A stretch of DNA of 11,235 nucleotides from an uncultured Myxococcales bacterium. GTDB taxonomy: Bacteria > Myxococcota > UBA727 > CAYLZW01. The notes under the pieces were generated by a model. It worked only from the letters and a program-made list of their open reading frames with translations. It made no database searches and was not told the DNA's origin. Within the stretch, counting starts at the first letter, position 1; each line of letters starts with the position of its first letter. Where the stretch lies: positions 1-11,235 of the forward strand of contig CAYLZW010000198.1 of NCBI GenBank assembly GCA_964388085.1. Reading direction: 5' to 3'. Shown piece by piece: positions 2,919 through 11,235 of this stretch. The translations under genes and the position numbers were made by a program.

Positions 2919-3056
2919 TCACACCCCCGCAGCGACGGCGACGAGGACTTCACCGGCGACGCCGGCCCAACCCATGTTGCCGACGGTCACGACTTCGTGT
3001 CCGGCGAGGAAGTGCCGGAGGTCTTGCGGCAGGTTCTCGTCGAGCAAGAGCTTCAT
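2919..3056 (-). pseudogene. Truncated DUF5615 (Mut7-C/PIN-like putative toxin) remnant, 45 codons
   Basis: Minus-strand translation from the ATG at 3056..3054 gives MKLLLDENLPQDLRHFLAGHEVVTVGNMGWAGVAGEVLVAVAAGV*. The MKLLLDENLP...GH.V..V...G..G opening is the classic DUF5615 N-terminus. Full-length members are about 110 aa, whereas here a TGA falls after 45 aa. No homologous continuation appears in the other frames. The ATG overlaps the TGA of the upstream DUF433 gene (ATGA). Confidence 0.5.
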
Positions 3057-3277
3057 GCGCGGGCGACGAGCGCGGCTGCTTCGCTGCTGTGACGAGCGTC
3101 TTCCAGGACCGCGACGACCTGCTCACGGCGAACCGTGGGGAACTGCGCCAGGAAATAGTCGATCGTGTAGCCGGCCTCGAGATGATCGAAGAGCGCCTTC
3201 ACCGGAACGCGTGTGCCAGCAAAGCACGGCGTGCCACCGAGGACTTTCTCATCGGACCGAACGTGATCGCTGCTCAT
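3053..3277 (-). CDS. DUF433 domain protein (antitoxin-like partner of DUF5615)
   Basis: The 74-aa ORF contains KVLGGTPCFAGTRVPVKALFDHLEAGYTIDYFLAQFPTVRREQVVAVLE. This matches the DUF433 consensus (GG.P.i.GTRi.v..l...l..G.s.eei...yP.l....i.aal). Its stop forms an ATGA overlap with the DUF5615 remnant. Confidence 0.8.
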   Translation of the reverse strand: MSSDHVRSDEKVLGGTPCFAGTRVPVKALFDHLEAGYTIDYFLAQFPTVRREQVVAVLEDARHSSEAAALVARA

Positions 3278-3292
3278 CCGGAGATTCTAGCC
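3278..3292 (-). promoter_or_regulatory. Putative -10 element TAGAAT 6 nt upstream of the DUF433 ATG (candidate leaderless or short-leader promoter)
   Basis: The minus-strand sequence reads GGCTAGAATCTCCGG-ATG. The same TAGAAT-N6-ATG arrangement occurs upstream of the addiction-module antitoxin gene at 4737. The only two ATTCTA/TAGAAT hexamers in the window lie at these two positions. Confidence 0.35.
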
Positions 3293-3477
3293 TCCTGCCC
3301 GGTGACGCTCCAGCGCGCGGCGGCACCACGACACGGCGGCGTCTTCCAGGACCTACGCGACACCACCCGTCGCATTCCCATCCCATGACCCAGCGCGTCG
3401 TCAGATCCGCCACCCACCCTCCCCTCCACGCGCAACAATCAGCCTCCCCCAACGGACAGCGATCAGGAGGCCCTCAC

Positions 3478-4470
3478 ATGCGCGACGCCCACACCCCAGT
3501 CGCCAACCGCGGCAGCACCGATCGCACGCGGCTCATCCCCGCCCGCCGTCCGCCAACCCAGCGGAACAACGACAGAAACTGGGTCCAGACCCTGGAGGAC
3601 CTCCGGCAGCAGAGAGCCAAGCATCCCGAGCAAGCCGCCCTCGCCGTCATCGTCCAGCAGGCAGGCGAGCCCCGGCTTCGCACGAGGCTGCGCTTCGGCA
3701 GCCGCAACCACCCCATCGCCCTCAGCCTCGGGCGGCACACGTGCTGCGACCTGCCCGGCCTCCGGGACGCCAGCCTGCGGCATGCGCTCGTCCTCGCGTG
3801 GCCGAGCGCGGAGCACCCCGTGGAGGTCATCGACCTTCGCAGCAACACGGGGCTCGTCGTCTCCAGCGGCAAGAGCGTCGAGCGCCTTAGGGGGAGCGGT
3901 CCGATGCGTTTCACCGCCGGCAGCGACGAGGTCACCGTGCTGTACGCGGCGCCGAACGCTCCGCTCGAGATTGACCTGCCGCATGAGCTCGAGGGCTGGA
4001 TCGACATCGAGGAGCGGCGGATGCTTGGGGAGCTGTCCGACCGGCTCCCGAGCCCGCCGAAGACGAACCCTTCCTACGTCGTGCGGGACGGCGTCACGCT
4101 CGTGCGCGCCTGTGACGGGCGCGTGCTCGACGAGGGGCGGCACGAGGTCATCCGCGCGAGCGCGAGGCAGCTGCGCGAGGGGCTGCTGCTCGGGCGCTAT
4201 GAGCGCTGTGACAAGCACCTGATGTTCAGCTTCGATTCGGGGGTGTCGCGCGTGCATGCCTTCGTCGTCGAGCGCGAGGGGTCGCTGCACGTCGTGGACG
4301 TGGGGTCCAGCAACGGCACGTTCATTATCGACGCGCGCGACGGCCGGCCGCTGCGGGCGCTGGACGCGCCGTATCGCGCGCATTGCCTTGGGCCTCGGGA
4401 GCAGATTCGCATCGCTTCCAAGCGGGTGGCGATTGAGCTGCGGGCGGATGGGGGATGGTGGGTGAACTGA
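3478..4470 (+). CDS. Tandem FHA-domain protein
   Basis: The ATG at 3478 is preceded by AGGAGG (3465-3470) with a 7-nt spacer. The ORF-track extension back to 2974 overlaps DUF433 on the other strand and is rejected. The C-terminal segment LLLGRYERCDKHLMFSFDSGVSRVHAFVVEREGSLHVVDVGSSNGTFI carries the FHA signature (GR...CD..l....vSR.HA......g...v.DlgSsNGTf.n). A second, more degenerate FHA-like unit lies upstream: IALSLGRHTCCDLPGLRDASLRHALVLA...VEVIDLRSNTGLVV. The stop is TGA 4468-4470. Confidence 0.75.
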   Translation: MRDAHTPVANRGSTDRTRLIPARRPPTQRNNDRNWVQTLEDLRQQRAKHPEQAALAVIVQQAGEPRLRTRLRFGSRNHPIALSLGRHTCCDLPGLRDASLRHALVLAWPSAEHPVEVIDLRSNTGLVVSSGKSVERLRGSGPMRFTAGSDEVTVLYAAPNAPLEIDLPHELEGWIDIEERRMLGELSDRLPSPPKTNPSYVVRDGVTLVRACDGRVLDEGRHEVIRASARQLREGLLLGRYERCDKHLMFSFDSGVSRVHAFVVEREGSLHVVDVGSSNGTFIIDARDGRPLRALDAPYRAHCLGPREQIRIASKRVAIELRADGGWWVN

Positions 4471-4494: not shown

Positions 4495-4737
4495 TTAGGG
4501 GCTGCGCTCAGCCATCCGCCTCATCACCTCCGCCTTCACATCGGCCGACGGGATGAGCGTCGCTTCGCCCCGATCGATGCGGGCCAGCCGTCGCTGGATG
4601 GTCGCCAACATCTCGTCGCTGGTGTCGTCGTTAGCATCGCCCAGCGTGGCGGCGAGGCGCTCCACCAGCTCCGGCCGCTCGTCGTCAGGCAGGGTCAGCG
4701 CCTTCTCGTACAGCTCGGTGGCGGTCGTGCTCGTCAT
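4495..4737 (-). CDS. Addiction-module antitoxin component (TIGR02574-like, RelE/ParE-type partner), apparently orphan
   Basis: The 80-aa sequence ELYEKALTLPDDERPELVERLAATLGD...DEMLATIQRRLARIDRGEATLIPSADVKAEV matches the putative addiction module component pattern (LsLp..eR.eL...Ll.SL....de..aaW..E..rR..e.dsGe...ip.eev). No toxin ORF follows. Only 24 nt separate it from the convergent FHA gene. Confidence 0.7.
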   Translation of the reverse strand: MTSTTATELYEKALTLPDDERPELVERLAATLGDANDDTSDEMLATIQRRLARIDRGEATLIPSADVKAEVMRRMAERSP

Positions 4738-4922: not shown

Positions 4923-5039
4923 ATGAAGCCAAGCGCCCTGCCCGAGCCGAGCGCCATCGATGACATGATAGCGCGCGTGCGTGCGGCGCTCGACGGTCGT
5001 GTCGACGTGGGCTTGGCGATCCTGTTTGGCTCCTTATGA
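4923..5039 (+). pseudogene. N-terminal remnant (38 aa) of an MNT-type minimal nucleotidyltransferase (antitoxin of HEPN/MNT pairs)
   Basis: Translation gives MKPSALPEPSAIDDMIARVRAALDGRVDVGLAILFGS-L-stop. The block ...V..A.LFGS is the conserved start of the GS-x-ARG-x(n)-SD-x-D nucleotidyltransferase motif. A TGA follows immediately, and the ARGE...SDID part is absent. It overlaps the first 59 nt of the FG-GAP ORF in another frame. Confidence 0.4.
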
Positions 5040-7104
5040 CGAGCGCGAGGCGAGCGGCTTCATCGTGCACGTGGGGGGTCCGCGCCCGGTCCTCGACAGT
5101 CAGGAGTGGGTCACGACCCAGAACCCGTACGGCTTCGAGCTCGGCGACGTGAACGGCGACGGGCACCTCGATCTGTGGCTGGCAGCGGACCCCACCAGCA
5201 TCCGACTCGGTGACGGCGTGAGCTTCTCCGACGGCCAGGAGCTCTACCACTGGGGCGCCGACGACACCCGACTGGTGGACGTCGACGGCGACGGCGATCT
5301 CGACGCGCTCTCGGTCGATGACTTCAGGGACAAGCTGCTCGTCTCGCGCAACAACGGCCACGGAAACTTCGGCACGCCCGCCGAGTACACGGTCGCCAAC
5401 GCCGCGCAGATCGCGCCGGGCGACTTCGACGGCGACGGCGACACGGACATTGTCATCCGCCAGAACCAATACGGCCCGGGCGAGCTGCTGCTTTATGTCA
5501 ATGACGGGCTCGGCGGCTTCTCACCCGGCGCCCCCGTCGGGGCCAGCGCGGCGGAAGTGCTCGTCACGGATCTCGACGGCGACGGCTACCCCGACCTCGT
5601 CTCGCTCAGCGGCCCGACCATCAGCACGCACTTCGCCGACGGTGACGGCACCTTCGTCGCCGGCCCGAGCTTCGCGCCGGCCGGCAGTCAGGACGTGCGA
5701 GGGCTCGACGTCGGCGACGTAGACGCGGATGGCGACGTCGACATCGTCAGCAACGGGCGCATCGGCTTCGACGGCTTCCGCTGGACGGTCCTGAACAATG
5801 GCGACCGCACCTTCGGCGCCCCGCTACAAGGCAGCGCCCCCTGGCTCGCGGAGCAGCTCACGCTCGGCGACGTGAACAATGACGGACGCGTCGACATTCT
5901 GTTCGATGGCGCCGGCGTGTACGTCGGCGACGGTAGCGGCGGCTTTGTCTCCTCAATGACCGTGTCGGGCGGAGCTGGCGGCGATCACGTGACGCTCCTC
6001 GACGTGAGCGGAGACGGCGTCCTCGACCTGCTGCACTCCTCGCTGCGAGCGGGCCGCTTCGGCGTGCAGCGCGGCTTCTGCGACGGCACCTTCGAGCGCC
6101 CCGAGGGAGCGCCGCTCCCCGCCCAGGCGTGGGCGCAGGCGCTGGCCGACTTCGACGGCGACGGCGACCTCGACTCTGCCGTCGGCCTACGCGACAGCGA
6201 CCTCAGCGTCGTGCTCTCGAACGACGGCGCCGGCGACTTCAGCGTCGGCAGCCCCTTCGCCATGGTGCACGACTGGGGCGTCATGGTGAGCGGTGACCTG
6301 AACGGCGACGGCCGCGCGGACCTGCTCTCGGGCGGCAGCAGCGGCGTGCACGCCATGCTCGGCGCCGCGGACGGCAGCTTCAGCACCGGCCCGGTGCACA
6401 GCACCGGCGCTCGCCCCATCACGCTCGAGCTCGCGGACGTCAACGACGACGGCCACCTTGATCTGCTCGCGGCGCACTACAACACGGGCCTCCTCACGGT
6501 CTCGCTCGGCGTGGGCGACGGCGACTTCCTTACGCCGGTCACCTCGCTGCCCATCGCCAACGGCGGAGCGGACGCCGCGCGCTTCGCCGACCTCGACGTG
6601 GACGGTCACCTCGACGTGGTCGCGCTGCTCGGCAACGGGCTGCGCGTCTACTGGGGCGACGGCGCCGGAGGCTTCGCCGCGAGCAGCGACTTCGCCATCA
6701 CGACCTACGCGGACGGCGAGTCGCTCGTCGTCGGTGACTTCAACGCCGACGGGCTGCCCGACGTGGCGGTCAGCACGGTGTGGGTGAACGCGGACCTCTT
6801 CATCCACTTCGGCGAGGGCGCCCGCGCGCTGTCGGACGCGACTCGGCTCGATATCCAGGCCGACTGGGTCGACAGCATGCTGGCGTTCGACGTGAGCGGT
6901 GACGGCGTCGATGACCTCGTCGTCTCGAACGTGAACGGGGTCGGCTTCAGCGTCTATGTCTCGGACGGCGTGGGCGGCTTTTATCCGCCCGTCGGCTACT
7001 GGAACCGCACCTGGGGCCTCGCCCAGGGTGACGCGGACGGCGACGGCATCGACGACGTCTGGTTCCTGCTGAACCACGACTCCCTCGGCGTGCTGCTGCA
7101 ATAG
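4981..7104 (+). CDS. FG-GAP/VCBS-repeat protein with 14 repeats (predicted two 7-bladed beta-propellers); start uncertain, possibly 5'-truncated
   Basis: There are fourteen DxDGDGxxDh Ca-binding-loop repeats spaced about 45-55 aa apart (GDVNGDGHLDLW, VDVDGDGDLDAL, GDFDGDGDTDIV, ...). Most are followed by an h.h.N.G.G.F half, which is integrin-alpha-type FG-GAP architecture. The frame is strongly GC3-biased for 2.1 kb. The only available start is GTG 4981. The 40 N-terminal residues have no hydrophobic signal peptide. Confidence 0.8.
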   Translation: MRRSTVVSTWAWRSCLAPYDEREASGFIVHVGGPRPVLDSQEWVTTQNPYGFELGDVNGDGHLDLWLAADPTSIRLGDGVSFSDGQELYHWGADDTRLVDVDGDGDLDALSVDDFRDKLLVSRNNGHGNFGTPAEYTVANAAQIAPGDFDGDGDTDIVIRQNQYGPGELLLYVNDGLGGFSPGAPVGASAAEVLVTDLDGDGYPDLVSLSGPTISTHFADGDGTFVAGPSFAPAGSQDVRGLDVGDVDADGDVDIVSNGRIGFDGFRWTVLNNGDRTFGAPLQGSAPWLAEQLTLGDVNNDGRVDILFDGAGVYVGDGSGGFVSSMTVSGGAGGDHVTLLDVSGDGVLDLLHSSLRAGRFGVQRGFCDGTFERPEGAPLPAQAWAQALADFDGDGDLDSAVGLRDSDLSVVLSNDGAGDFSVGSPFAMVHDWGVMVSGDLNGDGRADLLSGGSSGVHAMLGAADGSFSTGPVHSTGARPITLELADVNDDGHLDLLAAHYNTGLLTVSLGVGDGDFLTPVTSLPIANGGADAARFADLDVDGHLDVVALLGNGLRVYWGDGAGGFAASSDFAITTYADGESLVVGDFNADGLPDVAVSTVWVNADLFIHFGEGARALSDATRLDIQADWVDSMLAFDVSGDGVDDLVVSNVNGVGFSVYVSDGVGGFYPPVGYWNRTWGLAQGDADGDGIDDVWFLLNHDSLGVLLQ

Positions 7105-7264
7105 CAGGGTGCTGAAAAACGCTGCCTCGCTCGCCGCGCGGTGCGAAGCCCCATGATACGAGCGCTGCTTCGAGTCCGGCGATCCGGCAACTGTCGTCGA
7201 GAAACGCTCGCGAGTCGATCCGATCGATGCGACGAACCAGCGCTCGCGGAGCTCTCGCGTGCCC

Positions 7265-7348
7265 TCAGGGCAGGTCGTACTCGTGCCAGATGGCGAGGAA
7301 CGTCAGCACGGGTGCGAGCACGCCAATGATGCCCGCGAGCAGCGACAT
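7265..7348 (-). CDS. Possible small hydrophobic peptide (27 aa, single TM): MSLLAGIIGVLAPVLTFLAIWHEYDLP
   Basis: A short ATG-initiated ORF sits 178 nt downstream of the NadK-like gene on the same strand. 25 of 27 codons end in G/C, consistent with genuine coding in this genome. It could extend upstream via GTG/TTG to about 45-50 aa with a second hydrophobic segment. No family was recognised. Confidence 0.25.
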   Translation of the reverse strand: MSLLAGIIGVLAPVLTFLAIWHEYDLP

Positions 7349-7526
7349 GCCCAACCTGAAGGGACGATCGGTCTCGGCGACGAGACCGCGGATGCGGCTC
7401 AAACGAAAAGCATTCACAAAGCCGATGATCGCGAGAACCCGACGCCGACGAGGAACGCGGCGTCGAACGAGCCTCGCCACAAGCGCACGATGACGGCCGC
7501 GAGCTCCTGTTCTCCTGCCCTCGCGC

Positions 7527-8417
7527 TCACGACGGCACCAGCAGCCGCAGTCGCTCGTCCGCTGCCCGCACCGTGACGCGCTGGCCGTACGGAAGGGAGA
7601 TGCAGTCGCGCTCCAGTCCGTCACCGAAGAGCACACCGCGCTCCATCTCGCTCGTGAGCTCGAGCGAGCCGTCAGCGTCGAGCACGCCTTGGGTCAGCGA
7701 TACGCCGGTGGTCAGCGACGGGAAGGCCTCCCGCACGAAAAAGCACAGGCCCGGATCCTCAGCGCCCGGCAAGGGAATGGCATCTCGGCGTTCGAGCGCA
7801 ATGGAGCGTGCCCAGCCGGTTGCGCCGGTGCCGCTCGCTACGATGAGGCCGGACGACGAGTGCCGCTCCTCCCGCTCCTCGAACAGGAGGAGATAGCGCG
7901 CGCTCTGGTGCGAGGCGTGGCCGATGAAGATCTCATTCAGCGCCCTTAGCCTCTGTCCGTCGCTGGTGCTCGCCTCGACGAGCGTGCGCTCTTCGAGGAC
8001 AGCGCCGCCGTGGACGGCGGCCTCGAACAGCGCCCTCGCCTGCTCGGGCCGGTGCCGCACGAGGACGCCATCGTAGAGGCCGGGGTTGAAGCCAATGACG
8101 ATCTGCCGGCGGAGGTATTTGGCGACATTGGCCACGAGGCCGTCCTGTCCGACGCACGCGACCACGTCCTCGGGCTCGAACAGGAAGCGATCCAGGTCGG
8201 CCCGGCCCACGTGTGCGCGGCGCCAATCGAGCGGGATGCTCGAGAGCACCGCGTCGCTGGCGCCGCGCACGAGCGCGTGGCGTGCCTCGACGTCCTCGAG
8301 GCGCTGCCCGCGAGTCTCGAGGAAGAAGCGCGCCTGGCTCCGCGTGCCATGGCGGTCCAGCAGCTCCTCCAGCTCGGTGGGGCGCGTGACGACGACAGCG
8401 CGGGGAGGGAGGGCCAT
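7527..8417 (-). CDS. NAD(+) kinase homologue (ATP-NAD kinase/DAGK_cat fold), divergent motifs
   Basis: Collinear NadK blocks are present. DVVACVGQDGLVANVA aligns with D.vv.lGGDGT.L.aa. IVIGFNPGLYDGVL aligns with PilGIN.G.LGFL. ALNEIFI aligns with aLNEvvi. SGLIVASGTGATGWARSIA aligns with [21 protein letters not shown]. The C-terminal DADGSLELT...GDGLERDCISL...VTV aligns with DGq....gd.i.i..s. The start is set at ATG 8417 (MALPPRAVVVTRP), 1 nt after the TGA of the upstream SPFH gene. The ORF-track start at 8480 is rejected. Confidence 0.7.
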   Translation of the reverse strand: MALPPRAVVVTRPTELEELLDRHGTRSQARFFLETRGQRLEDVEARHALVRGASDAVLSSIPLDWRRAHVGRADLDRFLFEPEDVVACVGQDGLVANVAKYLRRQIVIGFNPGLYDGVLVRHRPEQARALFEAAVHGGAVLEERTLVEASTSDGQRLRALNEIFIGHASHQSARYLLLFEEREERHSSSGLIVASGTGATGWARSIALERRDAIPLPGAEDPGLCFFVREAFPSLTTGVSLTQGVLDADGSLELTSEMERGVLFGDGLERDCISLPYGQRVTVRAADERLRLLVPS

Positions 8418-8418
8418 A

Positions 8419-9441
8419 TCAGGCCTGCTCCTCGAGCCGCTTTGCGCCCGCGCTCGCCAGGCGCTGCAGGAGCGGCCCAATGACCTCGGAGCCCACTGTC
8501 AGGTGCTCGATGGTCTGCAGCTTGCCCGCGAGCTCGCGCGCGGCGAGCCCGAGCAGGGCGTCGGAGGGGAGCGTGCGATAGATGTCCATGCGCGCGCGCT
8601 CGGCCTCGACGCGGGCGCGCTCGGTGACCTCGGTGGCCGCCGCTTGCGCTTCGGCCGTGAGGCGCACATCGGCGGCCTTGGCCTCGGACGCCACTCGCTT
8701 GGCGCGCGCCTGCTCCTCGGCGCGGCGTCGCTCATTCTGTCCCTGCTGATCGATGAGCTTCTCCTCGCGGCGGGCGAGCTCGAGCTGGTTCGCGAGCTCG
8801 TTCTCGGCGATGGCGCGCTCCTTCTCGACCGCCAGCGCGCGGCGCTGAAAGGTGGCCTCGTCGGCGCGCTGCTGAATCGACTCCCGCGTCGGCATCTGCA
8901 GAGCGCGCTCCATCTCGGCGCTCGGCGCCACCTGCGCCACACGGGCGGAGACGATCTCGATGCCCATGGCCTCGAGGCCGCCATCCCGCAGCAGCCCCTC
9001 GTGCACGTCGGCGCGCAGTCGCGCGAGGCCCTCCTCGAGGATGAGCCCGAGCGGCTGCTGCGCGAGCCAGGCGGTGGCGAGCTGCTGCGCGAGCTGTGTC
9101 AGCAGCCCTGCCAATTGATCGAGCGGCTGCTCGAGGTACGTGCCGGTCTTCGTGTCGAGCGCGAAGCTCAAGCGCTGCGAGACGAGCTCGGGCGCGAGCA
9201 CGCGGTAGGTGATGACGCCCTGCACGACGACCTCCTGGAAGTCACGGCTGCGACCGTGAAACAGGAAGGGCACGTCGCGGTCGTCGAGCGGCACCTCGAG
9301 GAGGCTGGTGCCGAGCGGCAAAAACCAGAAGCTCAGCCCACGCCCCGCCCGCTTCACCTCGCCGTTCTTGACGTGCACCAGGTGGCTCGTGGGCTCCCCG
9401 CGCACGTGCCGAACGACTCCGAAGGACGACAGCTCTGCCAT
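8419..9441 (-). CDS. SPFH/band-7 (stomatin/flotillin-like) domain protein with Ala/Glu/Arg-rich coiled-coil tail, no N-terminal TM segment
   Basis: The start ATG at 9441 (MAELSSFGVV) is preceded by AGGAGG with a 6-nt spacer. The N-terminal segment VRHVRGEPTSHLVHVKNGEVKRAGRGLSFWFLPLGTSLLEVPLDDRDVPFLFHGRSRDFQEVVVQGVITYRVLAP fits the SPFH core pattern (v.v..ge.a.v...G.....pG.hf..P....v..v.lr......t.D...v.vd..v.yrv.dp). A long EA-rich helical region follows (AVEKERAIAENELANQLELARREEKLIDQQ...AEEQARAKRVASEAKAADVRLTAEAQAAATEVTERARVEAERAR), as in flotillin-like proteins. The 134-aa Arg/Ser-rich N-terminal extension in the ORF track is rejected as untranslated. Confidence 0.7.
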   Translation of the reverse strand: MAELSSFGVVRHVRGEPTSHLVHVKNGEVKRAGRGLSFWFLPLGTSLLEVPLDDRDVPFLFHGRSRDFQEVVVQGVITYRVLAPELVSQRLSFALDTKTGTYLEQPLDQLAGLLTQLAQQLATAWLAQQPLGLILEEGLARLRADVHEGLLRDGGLEAMGIEIVSARVAQVAPSAEMERALQMPTRESIQQRADEATFQRRALAVEKERAIAENELANQLELARREEKLIDQQGQNERRRAEEQARAKRVASEAKAADVRLTAEAQAAATEVTERARVEAERARMDIYRTLPSDALLGLAARELAGKLQTIEHLTVGSEVIGPLLQRLASAGAKRLEEQA

Positions 9442-9496
9442 CTCGCGCCTCCTGCTGTGGCGCCGCAGCGCCGTTGTCCGTGTCTCTCTCTCCCCA

Positions 9497-10252
9497 TCAC
9501 AGCGCCGAGCGACGAATGAAGCGGTACATCTCCGCCGGGCGGTACGCGACCTCGCGCTCGCGCTCGCCGGTGGCCTCGATGTGGCCGCTCGCGAGCATTC
9601 GCCGGCGAAAGGAATCCTTATTGAGCGCCTCGCCGCGAATGGCCTCGTGGACCTCCTGCAGCGCGCGCAACGGGAAGCTCTCGGGAAGCAGCTGGAAGCC
9701 GACCGGGCTGTAGTCGATCTTTCCGCGCAGCCGCTTGAGCGCCATGCCGAGGATGTCGGCGTGGTCGACGAACAGCGGCAGCTCCTCTCCGTCCGCCGTG
9801 AGCGCGCGCGCCGGGCCGCCGACCTCTCCCGGCCAGTCCGCACAGGCGAGCGCGCTCAAGGCGCCCCGCTCGGCCGCGATGGCTTCGAAGGCGGGCGGCG
9901 CCACCAGCGCATAATAGGCGACGGTGATGACGCGCGTCCGCGGGTCGCGCTTCACGCTGCCGAACGTGTACAGCTGCTCGAGGAACACTCCCTCGAGGCC
10001 GGCCTTCTCGCGCAGCACGCGGCGGGCGGCGTCGTCGAGTGACTCGGTAATGCAGACGAAGCCGCCGGGCAGCGCATAGCGCCCGCGCTGCGGTGGCTCC
10101 TGCCGGCGATAGAGCGCCACTTGCAAGCTTCCTTCGCGCACCGTGAGCACGACGACGTCGACCGCCACCGACGGCCGCTCAAAGGCGCTCGCGTCGTAGC
10201 TCGCGAGGAACGCGCGCTCAGCTGGATCAGGTTTGGGATGACGCTCGGCCAC
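9497..10252 (-). CDS. nrtR: NrtR-family Nudix-related transcriptional regulator (N-terminal ADP-ribose-binding Nudix fold with degenerate Nudix box + C-terminal winged helix)
   Basis: The C-terminal FPLRALQEVHEAIRGEALNKDSFRRRMLASGHIEATGE...RPAEMYRF closely matches the NrtR DNA-binding domain signature (F.l.eLQ.vYEaiLGk.ldK.nFRRk....g.iE.TGe....RPA.lYRF). The N-terminal SVAVDVVVLTV...LPGGFV...ARRVLREKAGLEG is a Nudix fold whose REx2EE box is degraded to RRVLREK. The GTG start at 10252 sits immediately after an in-frame TAA and has a GAGGT RBS. Confidence 0.8.
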   Translation of the reverse strand: MAERHPKPDPAERAFLASYDASAFERPSVAVDVVVLTVREGSLQVALYRRQEPPQRGRYALPGGFVCITESLDDAARRVLREKAGLEGVFLEQLYTFGSVKRDPRTRVITVAYYALVAPPAFEAIAAERGALSALACADWPGEVGGPARALTADGEELPLFVDHADILGMALKRLRGKIDYSPVGFQLLPESFPLRALQEVHEAIRGEALNKDSFRRRMLASGHIEATGEREREVAYRPAEMYRFIRRSAL

Positions 10253-10303
10253 TTAGATACCTCATGCATCTAAGTCTTATATGCGCTGTGTATCTAAGGC
10301 AAG
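10252..10303 (-). promoter_or_regulatory. Candidate NrtR operator/promoter: three copies of 9-mer half-site CTTAGATAC (10252-10260 direct; GCATCTAAG 10266-10274 and GTATCTAAG 10290-10298 inverted) with -10 TATAAG (10276-10281, minus) and -35 TTGCCT (10297-10302, minus)
   Basis: Read directly, CTTAGATAC-N5-GcATCTAAG forms a 23-bp near-palindrome, and a third perfect inverted 9-mer lies 15 nt further on. The half-sites overlap the start codon, the RBS, the stretch just downstream of the -10, and the -35/spacer of a plausible sigma70-like promoter. This is the classic arrangement for an autorepressor. The region is AT-rich relative to its surroundings. Confidence 0.45.
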
Positions 10304-10322
10304 CCGCGGCAGCGGATCTGTC

Positions 10323-11235
10323 TCACAACAGCCCGAGCGCGTGCGCCGCGCGGTAGGCGACGATGCGCAGGTGTCCGTCGCGCAGCAGCTCGGGAGCGCC
10401 GAGTAGCTCGCGCAATCTCACCCACAACAGCGGACACTCGCGCGCCGCGCGCACCTCGGCGGCGAAGGGATGCACCACCTCGGGGGTGGCGCCCGAGCTC
10501 GGGTGGTAGCGGCCGCCCAGCACGGTCAGCTCCCCTATCTCGACCCCGAGCGTGCCGAGCAGCTGCTCGCGCAAGAAGCGCTCGGCGGCGCTCATGCCGT
10601 CGACGTCGACGGGCAGGCGCCAGGCGGGCGCGCTGAGCAGGTCGCTGTTGCCCGTGATGCACTGGGCCGCCGGGTGGTCGCCGTCTTCGATGCCGATGTA
10701 CACGTCGGTCGCGTTACGCCAGAGGAGCGCGAGCGACGCCGTGCGCACGCTTCGGGTGCGAGGCTCGACGTACTCGAAGGTCTGGCTCGCGAGCACGCGG
10801 CCTTCGGCGTCGAGCTCGTCGAAGCGACGGCAGCGCACTTGCAGAAAGCCGCTCGAGGCCGAGCTGTCCACGGGCTCGAAGGCGCGGCGCGCCGGTCGAC
10901 GGGCGAGCGTGTCGACGGTAGTGATGCGGAGGCGCGCCTTGTCCTTCGACTCCGGGAGGGCGAGCTCGGCGCCGATCCACGGGCCGAGATCTTTGCCGAG
11001 GTGCGCCAGCAGCGCATAGACATTGAGCTCGAGCCGTGCGTCGGGCAGGCCGCCGACCTGCGCGGCGCGCAACAGTTGGCGCGCCTCCACCGCCGCCACG
11101 CGCCCTGACGTCGAGAAGCCGGAGCTCGCGGGCACGTCGCGCTGCACGAGCACGGGCTGCATGCGCACCCACATGGAGCGCACCTCCTCGCGCAGGCCGC
11201 CGGGCGACAGGTAATAGGTGGCGCCCGGCGTGAAC
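10323..11235 (-). CDS. NudF-like (ADP-ribose pyrophosphatase fold) Nudix-family protein with degenerate catalytic box; 5' end outside window
   Basis: The C-terminal half aligns with E. coli NudF-type ADPRases. LLSAPAWRLPVDVDGMSAAERFLREQLLGTLGVE aligns with LLEmvAGmiEeGEsvEdvArREaiEEaGl, with the catalytic EE replaced by LG. GGRYHPSSGATPEVVHPFAAEV aligns with sFlaSPGgtsErssimvgEV / yySpGfsdE.ihlFlA. The reading frame stays open to the window edge (...ATYYLSPGGLREEVRSMWVRM...), so the true start is beyond 11235. The stop is TGA 10325-10323. Confidence 0.55.
   Translation of the reverse strand, partial: FTPGATYYLSPGGLREEVRSMWVRMQPVLVQRDVPASSGFSTSGRVAAVEARQLLRAAQVGGLPDARLELNVYALLAHLGKDLGPWIGAELALPESKDKARLRITTVDTLARRPARRAFEPVDSSASSGFLQVRCRRFDELDAEGRVLASQTFEYVEPRTRSVRTASLALLWRNATDVYIGIEDGDHPAAQCITGNSDLLSAPAWRLPVDVDGMSAAERFLREQLLGTLGVEIGELTVLGGRYHPSSGATPEVVHPFAAEVRAARECPLLWVRLRELLGAPELLRDGHLRIVAYRAAHALGLL

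Follow-up and report, generated by a model that had tools for sequence, protein, structure and literature searches.

The stretch of DNA analyzed here, referred to below as the window, is an entire contig of 11,235 bp (CAYLZW010000198.1, approximately 69% G+C) from an uncultured Myxococcales bacterium. Its minus strand, read from position 11235 down to position 7265, carries in order ORF-A, nrtR, an SPFH gene, a kinase gene, and a short hydrophobic open reading frame (ORF). ORF-A (10323 to 11235) encodes the C-terminal part of a longer protein with a pseudo-Nudix fold, and nrtR (9497 to 10252) encodes a Nudix-related repressor with a C-terminal winged helix. The SPFH/Band-7 gene (8419 to 9441) encodes a soluble protein of 340 amino acids, and the kinase gene (7527 to 8417) encodes a protein of 296 amino acids with an NADK2-type NAD-kinase fold; we refer to these two genes as nrtX and nrtY, respectively, on grounds of layout that are set out below. 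A first-pass annotation of the window had described an NAD/ADP-ribose module of four same-strand genes (pseudo-Nudix, NrtR, SPFH, and NadK-like) with a small peptide as a possible fifth, and all four genes were indeed found on the minus strand where it had placed them. The gap between nrtR and nrtX is 55 nt. That between nrtX and nrtY is 1 nt, as had been claimed, the TGA stop codon of nrtX (8421 to 8419) being followed by a single base and then by the ATG of nrtY at 8417. The conserved core is the SPFH-kinase pair, which makes three genes with nrtR, rather than four or five.

The nrtR product matched the Pfam families NUDIX (5e-10) and PF21906 NrtR_WHD (7.3e-21, full length, 1 to 61), and it scored 163 bits against the NCBIfam NtrR model, under the cutoff of 400. 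The nearest structures in the Protein Data Bank (PDB) were Bacteroides AraR (5bs6, 1.7e-36) and Shewanella NrtR (3gz5, 2.3e-27). Both domains were aligned in each case, and these alignments, together with the NrtR_WHD match, establish the winged helix of the putative NrtR. The Nudix box is degenerate, reading GFVCITE-x7-RVLREKAGL (G-x5-E-x7-RVLREKAGL) with two of the three REUXEE glutamates replaced, a loss that is expected of a regulator.

Upstream of nrtR lie two 21-bp palindromes. Site 1 (10277 to 10297, minus strand) contains one mismatch; its minus-strand sequence, TTAGATACACAGCGCATATAA, agrees with the consensus of the clade, TTATATGCAnnnTGCATATAA, at 15 of 18 positions. Site 2 (10253 to 10273, minus strand) is a perfect 6+9+6 palindrome with the minus-strand sequence TTAGATGCATGAGGTATCTAA, which agrees with the clade consensus at 14 of 18 positions. 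These are the sole matches in the window to TTAGAT-N9-ATCTAA, of which 0.01 per window would be expected by chance; two matches never occurred together in 200 shuffles. Site 2 includes the GAGG ribosome-binding site and ends 1 nt before the GTG start codon of nrtR. Site 1 overlaps a weak −35-like TTGCCT (10297 to 10302) and a −10-like TATAAG (10276 to 10281), both hexamers being read by eye. The first-pass annotation had placed NrtR behind its own palindromic operator with three sites; the operator is present, and it is conserved in other genomes, but it consists of two 21-bp sites.

The nrtX product matched Pfam Band_7 (PF01145, 6.7e-13) over profile positions 9 to 171 of 176. Its SPFH domain spans approximately residues 21 to 197; beyond it lie a long tail rich in Glu, Arg, and Ala and a C-terminal segment that is conserved. 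No transmembrane segment was found, the maximum Kyte-Doolittle 19-residue score being 1.02 (family median, 1.22), and the earlier description of a soluble SPFH/band-7 protein agrees with both the domain match and the missing hydrophobic segment. NrtX also weakly matches HflC over residues 150 to 240, with a marginal E value of 0.19.

NrtY gave no match in Pfam, the threshold of PF01513 not being reached. Against the NCBIfam NadK equivalog models it scored 16 to 36 bits, under the cutoffs of 211 to 470, which indicates that NrtY is not a canonical NadK orthologue. When a profile of 31 NrtY family members was compared with the PDB, human NADK2 was matched at 3.4e-16, and bacterial and archaeal NadKs were matched at 2e-6 to 3e-3. 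The AlphaFold model of NrtY (pLDDT 93) led to the same protein: the best Foldseek match was NADK2 (7r4j, E value of 2e-20, TM score of 0.73), followed by many NadK structures that support a two-domain NadK fold (E values of 2e-20 to 1e-14, TM scores of 0.6 to 0.73). The NAD-kinase homology claimed for this protein is thus recovered by structure search, and NrtY is, as judged by sequence and by predicted fold, nearest to human mitochondrial NADK2.

Invariant columns were read from the 31 aligned members, which come from several phyla. They comprise G90-Q-D-G93, N161-E162, H167, H170-Q-S172, R174-Y175, and E184-R185, and further S188-S189-G190, G196-T-G198, G201-W202, and F264-G-D-G267. The glycine-rich loop, SSSGL..TGTGATGW, is invariant or nearly so. 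The GGDG motif reads GQDG; Gln91 is invariant and the catalytic aspartate, Asp92, is kept. The first-pass annotation had taken the GGDGT and substrate motifs to be weakened, a view that these columns contradict, since GQDG, NE, and TGTGxTGW do not vary among the 31 members; the motifs are altered but fixed and have not decayed. An altered GGDG motif and low scores against curated NadK models could also be expected of a non-catalytic pseudo-kinase that binds NAD or ADP-ribose and gates or loads an SPFH assembly, the module then being a sensor or storage device, and the SPFH domains of the vault do bind NAD+ and ADP (PMC12280208). We regard this as improbable, because the aligned members show no variation in the catalytic Asp, the NE motif, or the glycine-rich loop, a pattern that is typical of an active enzyme.

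The substrate side of the putative active site can be compared with characterized kinases. Ohashi et al. (2012) defined C5orf33/NADK2 by Ser306, Lys317, and Trp319, which stand at the positions of Asp189, Thr200, and Tyr202 in Mycobacterium tuberculosis Ppnk (PMC3535332). In a hidden Markov model (HMM) alignment to 7r4j, these NADK2/Ppnk positions are occupied in NrtY by Ser189, Thr200, and Trp202, of which Ser189 and Trp202 are invariant. With Ser and Trp as in NADK2 and Thr as in Ppnk, all three substrate-side positions carry residues of proven NAD kinases. The human NADK2 precursor has 442 residues (PMC3535332) and the solved NADK2 chains have 391 to 398, compared with 296 amino acids in NrtY. 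NADK2 has an animal-specific insert domain (PMC9245612), which, judged by length only, appears to be absent from NrtY. Motif 1 of C5orf33, PX-GXN(T/S)DP, is missing as well; NrtY reads VIG(F/V)NP(S/G), with no (T/S)DP.

Relatives of the kinase are numerous, with more than 7,900 found after clustering at 90% identity and 407 clusters at 50% identity (E value of ≤1e-30). Genomic contexts were drawn from a one-genome-per-species scan that gave 80 loci, and the kinase-anchored loci are numbered L001 to L084. The sampled loci come from Myxococcota, Planctomycetota, Chloroflexia, Thermoanaerobaculia, Spirochaetales, Sphingomonas, and Asticcacaulis, and, within the Actinomycetota, from Arthrobacter, Kitasatospora, Catenulispora, and Mycolicibacterium. 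Kinase members of different phyla are 57 to 66% identical, which suggests strong purifying selection. An SPFH gene lies directly upstream of the kinase gene in every locus with upstream DNA (approximately 80 loci from approximately 8 phyla). In 66 of 74 loci, the distance from SPFH stop to kinase start lies between −14 and +10 nt, and a 4-nt overlap, typical of translational coupling of the two genes, occurs in 31. The pair is found in annotated records too, namely, on Rhizobium megaplasmids, a Methylomonas plasmid, a Streptomyces linear plasmid, and a Proteus chromosome. An all-against-all clustering of ORFs was dominated by Kitasatospora synteny and by spurious high-GC ORFs, and no conclusions were drawn from it.

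Some databases call relatives of NrtY "NAD kinase" or "NAD(+)/NADH kinase", and one might suppose from this that the window kinase is an ordinary housekeeping NadK with an unrelated SPFH gene beside it. This explanation is refuted for practical purposes by NCBIfam scores of 16 to 36 bits against cutoffs of 211 to 470, by an SPFH linkage that holds in every locus, and by the coupling of stop and start codons, which often overlap. The family is present, moreover, in Proteus and Mycolicibacterium, which also have a canonical nadK/ppnK.

NrtR accompanies the pair in a large part of the sample. In 21 loci an adjacent nrtR gene shares the strand of the pair, and in 18, which come from Arthrobacter, Mycolicibacterium, and Solirubrobacterales, it is divergent; together these are about half. 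A double site matching TTATATGCAnnnTGCATATAA at 13 or more of 18 positions was found upstream of nrtR in 19 of the 21 same-strand loci, usually with a 15-bp offset, a common ATATAT core, and an adjoining TTGAC. In the loci with divergent nrtR, TTATCGTCAnnnTGACGATAA occurs 30 to 90 nt upstream of the SPFH gene. This same box, at 15 or more of 18 positions, is present within 125 nt upstream of the SPFH gene in 33 of the 38 loci without an adjacent nrtR, a set that includes Kitasatospora, Catenulispora, Streptacidiphilus, and Actinospica; the best score in approximately 2,900 random windows was 13 of 18. By eye and with no background scoring, three 21-mers of the type TAGTGTC-N5-GACACTA were seen at the Proteus locus, and palindromes of their own type at each of the Methylomonas, Rhizobium, and Streptomyces plasmid loci. 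The distribution of boxes and nrtR genes indicates that NrtR control is near-universal for the pair and is not a chance feature of this contig. A conserved NrtR-SPFH-NadK-like neighborhood is therefore supported, with the SPFH-kinase pair in all loci and NrtR or its box in most.

Two loci depart from these patterns. Approximately 40 nt upstream of its SPFH gene, L018, from Solirubrobacterales and with no adjacent nrtR, has TATTGGTCGTACTGACCAATA, a perfect palindrome of 21 bp whose core is GT-N7-AC and which is probably a third variant of the NrtR box. On a 309-kb contig, L092 has the order SPFH'-kinase-nrtR, where the SPFH gene is cut to its last 58 residues (5849 to 6022) and the kinase and nrtR genes are intact. 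The SPFH remnant abuts a divergent ORF-A homologue (6001 to 7065), and L092 has the look of a module copy that was rearranged or is decaying.

The outer members of the array in the window stand apart from the conserved core. The frame of ORF-A is open to base 11235, and as the window is the whole contig, the gene is cut by the contig end. ORF-A had no match in Pfam, NCBIfam, or PADLOC, and a sequence-profile search of the PDB likewise gave none. Only the comparison of folds gave a lead: its AlphaFold model (pLDDT 85.7) matched ADP-ribose diphosphatase and the GDP-mannose hydrolase YffH in Foldseek (E value of 2e-7, TM scores to target of 0.6 to 0.69). Residues approximately 130 to 300 adopt the fold of a Nudix domain whose box is degenerate, the sequence at the box position being ...AAERFLREQLLGTLGV, in which the REUXEE glutamates are absent. 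The family keeps at most one box glutamate (..RL..EYGV), and the window protein has threonine there. The first-pass annotation had proposed a NudF-like fold that lost its catalytic glutamates, and the ADP-ribose-pyrophosphatase-like fold and dead Nudix box bear this out. ORF-A may bind ADP-ribose-like ligands. With NudF and YffH, ORF-A shares the fold and an SPG-type motif (PSSGATPE) after the box; it differs in that it lacks the box glutamates and a Pfam NUDIX match and sits within a larger methyltransferase-associated protein. Its homologues are 350 to 500 amino acids long and are often preceded by or fused to an S-adenosylmethionine (SAM) methyltransferase; some are labeled "SAM-dependent methyltransferase, partial" by NCBI, and the full-length homologues had no match in Pfam.

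Neither ORF-A nor the small peptide had a relative in any of the 84 kinase-anchored loci, L001 to L084, by tblastn, and the four- or five-gene unit that had been proposed is not upheld. ORF-A adjoins nrtR in four of the six contexts examined (the window, L092, L093, and L095), in three arrangements, and the regions upstream of ORF-A homologues and of the associated methyltransferase genes contained no NrtR box. Absence from the 84 loci together with the adjacency to nrtR in Polyangia-type contigs makes ORF-A a lineage-specific neighbor of the module rather than a part of its core. At the other end, a possible small hydrophobic peptide, MSLLAGIIGVLAPVLTFLAIWHEYDLP, is encoded at 7265 to 7348 on the minus strand and would have 71 amino acids if a GTG at 7480 were used. 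It has a hydrophobic core of 27 amino acids (Kyte-Doolittle score of 2.38) and coding-like G+C contents of 0.67, 0.37, and 0.93 at the three codon positions; on this basis it remains an unconfirmed, non-conserved candidate. Its place after the kinase gene is taken by a DUF4336 gene in two other myxobacterial loci, L015 (7910 to 8611) and L096 (1529 to 2236). L096 contains the closest relative of the window kinase with flanking DNA, at 79% identity.

The module has an entry in earlier literature. Table 1 of Rodionov et al. (2008, NAR 36:2047) lists a two-gene operon, nrtX-nrtY, of unknown function behind NrtR sites, with the layouts "#nrtR2; #nrtX-nrtY" for Streptomyces, "nrtR2<#>nrtX-nrtY" for Kineococcus and Frankia, and "nrtR<#>nrtX-nrtY" for Proteus mirabilis, and with a Hahella entry too (PMC2330246). 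The Proteus chromosome carries NrtR<>Band_7-kinase in the records sampled, which are from Proteus terrae and multispecies entries and not from strain HI4320; the module was not found on the P. mirabilis plasmid pHI4320, the Proteus copy being chromosomal. The actinobacterial layouts, with divergent nrtR in Arthrobacter and Mycolicibacterium and a box only in Kitasatospora, also match the entries of 2008. Because the layouts match, nrtX is taken as the SPFH gene and nrtY as the kinase gene, an assignment by layout and not by locus tags. As the Proteus layout is that of the 2008 entry, the module was already catalogued, and the first-pass claim that it had not been described does not hold. The SEED names "NrtR-regulated hypothetical OrfX, Band 7 protein domain" and "OrfY, PpnK-type ATP-NAD kinase domain" presumably refer to the same genes.

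The main text of that paper leaves the products of nrtX and nrtY unstated (PMC2330246). In the literature searched, no later papers on nrtX-nrtY were found, nor any that join NrtR with SPFH/Band 7, NrtR with NAD kinase, or an SPFH gene with a NAD kinase gene in an operon. The loci of 2008 are two-gene operons with NrtR sites and with nrtR divergent or elsewhere in the genome, layouts that recur here. In the window and 20 other loci, by contrast, nrtR comes first in the same operon and is preceded by a double site of consensus TTATATGCAnnnTGCATATAA, an arrangement not in the table. What this analysis adds is that nrtY is of the NADK2 type, that nrtX is soluble and obligatorily coupled, that the family is broad, that the same-strand layout is self-regulated and has an operator consensus of its own, and that the pseudo-Nudix neighbor is specific to a lineage.

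With moderate confidence, we interpret the module in the window as a copy of nrtR-nrtX-nrtY, an ADP-ribose-responsive, self-repressed operon for an accessory NAD(H) kinase with an SPFH scaffold. NrtR bound at the two 21-bp sites would lie across both the likely promoter of its own gene and the ribosome-binding site. For two characterized NrtRs, those of Synechocystis and Shewanella, the antirepressor with the strongest effect is ADP-ribose (PMC2330246). By analogy with these proteins, consumption of NAD and a rise in ADP-ribose would take NrtR off the DNA and allow nrtR, nrtX, and nrtY to be expressed. NrtY, as its fold and conserved residues suggest, would be an active accessory kinase of the NADK2/NADK3 type that transfers phosphate to the adenosine 2'-OH of NAD+ or NADH and so yields NADP(H), and part of a threatened NAD pool might thereby be moved into NADP(H) for reductive or antioxidant needs. 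Translational coupling and the behavior of other SPFH proteins suggest that NrtX would be made in a fixed ratio with the kinase and might form a ring or cage that holds, stabilizes, or gates it. Some loci add further genes on the NAD/ADP-ribose theme, the gene after the kinase encoding an ADP-ribosylglycohydrolase in L002, L003, L004, and L009, ARPP-1 in L012, and DUF1152 in L001.

The presence of ADP-ribosylglycohydrolase or ARPP-1 genes in some loci, and of an ADP-ribose sensor over the operon, would also fit a kinase that does not make NADP. In such a scheme NrtY would phosphorylate ADP-ribose, giving 2'-phospho-ADP-ribose, or another NAD-derived adenine nucleotide, such as NaAD to NaADP, and so clear or convert the metabolite that NrtR senses, with the SPFH protein as a partner. 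The invariant GQDG and the Ser and Trp substitutions, which are unlike canonical NadK, lend this some weight, and 2'-phospho-ADP-ribose, NaADP, and NADP likewise release Shewanella NrtR from DNA in vitro (PMC2330246). We nonetheless consider it rather unlikely, given that the three nicotinamide-side contact positions carry proven NAD-kinase residues, that NADK2, the closest characterized relative, is a genuine NAD kinase (PMC3535332), and that a glycohydrolase gene accompanies the module in no more than about 5 of approximately 90 loci.

The interpretation of the module as an ADP-ribose-responsive accessory NAD(H) kinase has evidence to its disadvantage as well. The operator core of the NrtR clade to which the window protein belongs is TGCA-N3-TGCA, without the usual GT-N7-AC, and ADP-ribose as the effector of this clade is carried over from the characterized NrtRs. 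A consensus scan of the window found neither a promoter nor a terminator. The Pfam NAD_kinase model misses most members of the NrtY family, and the replacement of the second GGDG glycine by an invariant Gln could mean that the phosphoryl donor or the reaction has changed. A physical complex of the SPFH protein and the kinase is inferred from gene coupling, and no biochemical or genetic data for any member of the module were found in the literature searched.

The genes that follow the kinase differ from locus to locus. Besides those already named, the immediate downstream genes encode acyl-CoA dehydrogenase, FG-GAP, MgtC/DUF4010, beta-eliminating lyase, ABC-2, xylose-isomerase-like, and DUF4336 proteins, and elsewhere the neighbors of the kinase are unrelated metabolic or surface genes. 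The idea of a conserved downstream partner of the kinase was rejected on this ground. Two unrelated loci have a gene of the YbjN family ("putative bacterial sensory transduction regulator") close to the module, at 10383 to 10889 in L002 (Holophagaceae) and at 5056 to 5466 in L019 (Chloroflexia). On the Methylomonas plasmid pUP202 (L087), a second "NUDIX hydrolase" gene (6133 to 7197, 354 amino acids) is convergent to the kinase gene, and a gene for a phage Bet recombinase is nearby.

The remainder of the window contains several genes associated with toxin-antitoxin (TA) and abortive infection (Abi) systems. The minus strand at 962 to 2819 encodes a protein of 316 amino acids in which Pfam recognizes the AbiEii nucleotidyltransferase toxin domain (6.8e-6), overlapped just upstream by a 339-amino-acid ORF with no Pfam match that could be an AbiEi-type antitoxin or regulator. 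At 2919 to 3277 on the minus strand, a DUF433 antitoxin-like gene (74 amino acids, 2.7e-17) is followed by a DUF5615/PIN-like toxin stub of 45 amino acids, which looks truncated against a Pfam profile of 110 positions. Other features are a DUF5131 protein (phage Gp37/Gp68-like; 138 to 881, minus strand, 2.9e-102), an orphan "Unstab_antitox" addiction-module component (4495 to 4737, minus strand), a protein with a C-terminal FHA domain (2974 to 4470, plus strand), and an FG-GAP repeat protein of 707 amino acids (4981 to 7104, plus strand). An FG-GAP protein is also found downstream of the module in L014.

Consumption of NAD and production of ADP-ribose are central to several defense systems, and the window itself holds AbiEii, DUF433/PIN-like, and antitoxin genes. 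The kinase, in addition, was found on 66 plasmid records. These points might suggest an anti-phage defense or counter-defense device that reacts to NAD depletion during infection, as the first-pass annotation had proposed, but the evidence makes this very improbable. A PADLOC scan of all five module proteins gave no match, tblastn found no homologue in 50,697 phage records, and Foldseek returned no viral structural match below an E value of 0.01. The plasmid records are mostly Rhizobium megaplasmids or chromids, the kinase family forms a compact and strongly conserved set of 407 clusters at 50% identity, and the flanks vary by locus and are mostly metabolic. The TA/Abi genes said to adjoin the module are real, but they are set off from it by the 2.1-kb FG-GAP gene, and they did not recur in the other loci examined, as judged by flank inspection and with no systematic island-enrichment statistic. 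Of the module as first proposed, then, the NrtR-SPFH-kinase linkage, the non-housekeeping kinase, and the NAD/ADP-ribose theme stand; its novelty and its four- or five-gene extent do not, and a role in defense finds no support.

With the tempting but unsupported defense-system reading removed, a module labeled "unknown function" since 2008 acquires a testable hypothesis from the pairing of its kinase, the bacterial protein nearest to human mitochondrial NADK2, with a soluble SPFH protein that always accompanies it. The module spans Myxococcota, Planctomycetota, Acidobacteriota, Actinomycetota, Chloroflexota, Spirochaetota, and Alpha- and Gammaproteobacteria, and its culturable hosts include Proteus, Providencia, Rhizobium, Arthrobacter, Mycolicibacterium, and Kitasatospora. 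The hypothesis bears on the role of soluble bacterial SPFH proteins, on what makes a second NAD kinase, induced by ADP-ribose, necessary in some bacteria, and on the origin of the NADK2/NADK3 lineage.

Known systems offer several comparisons. In HflK/C-FtsH and stomatin-NfeD, as here, the SPFH protein has a partner enzyme, with which it is encoded or around which it assembles. The classical SPFH systems have a membrane anchor and an NfeD or protease partner, whereas NrtX has neither and its partner gene encodes a kinase. The shell of the vault (MVP) is a membrane-free SPFH cage that houses the NAD-using PARP4, and its SPFH domains bind NAD+/ADP between neighboring subunits (PMC12280208). The likeness to NrtX is one of analogy alone. 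On a more speculative view, which we think doubtful, a membrane-free ring or cage of NrtX encloses or gates the NADK2-type kinase as an ADP-ribose-switched NAD(P) compartment, and the SPFH-coupled bacterial family is the source of the mitochondrial NADK2/plant NADK3 lineage. With canonical bacterial NadK/Ppnk (EC 2.7.1.23), NrtY shares the two-domain fold, the catalytic Asp, and the NE motif, and it differs by Gln for Gly in GGDG, by Ser for Asp, by Trp for Tyr, and in failing the family cutoffs. Its likeness to NADK2 lies in ALNE(I/V)F(I/V)G and SSGL..TGTG..W, which are common to both, and in the Ser and Trp that distinguish C5orf33 from Ppnk, although identity is approximately 18% and NADK2 has GGDG where NrtY has GQDG. 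Set beside NADK2 (7r4j, 7n29) and plant NADK3, NrtY is distinguished by being bacterial, regulated by NrtR, and coupled to an SPFH protein.

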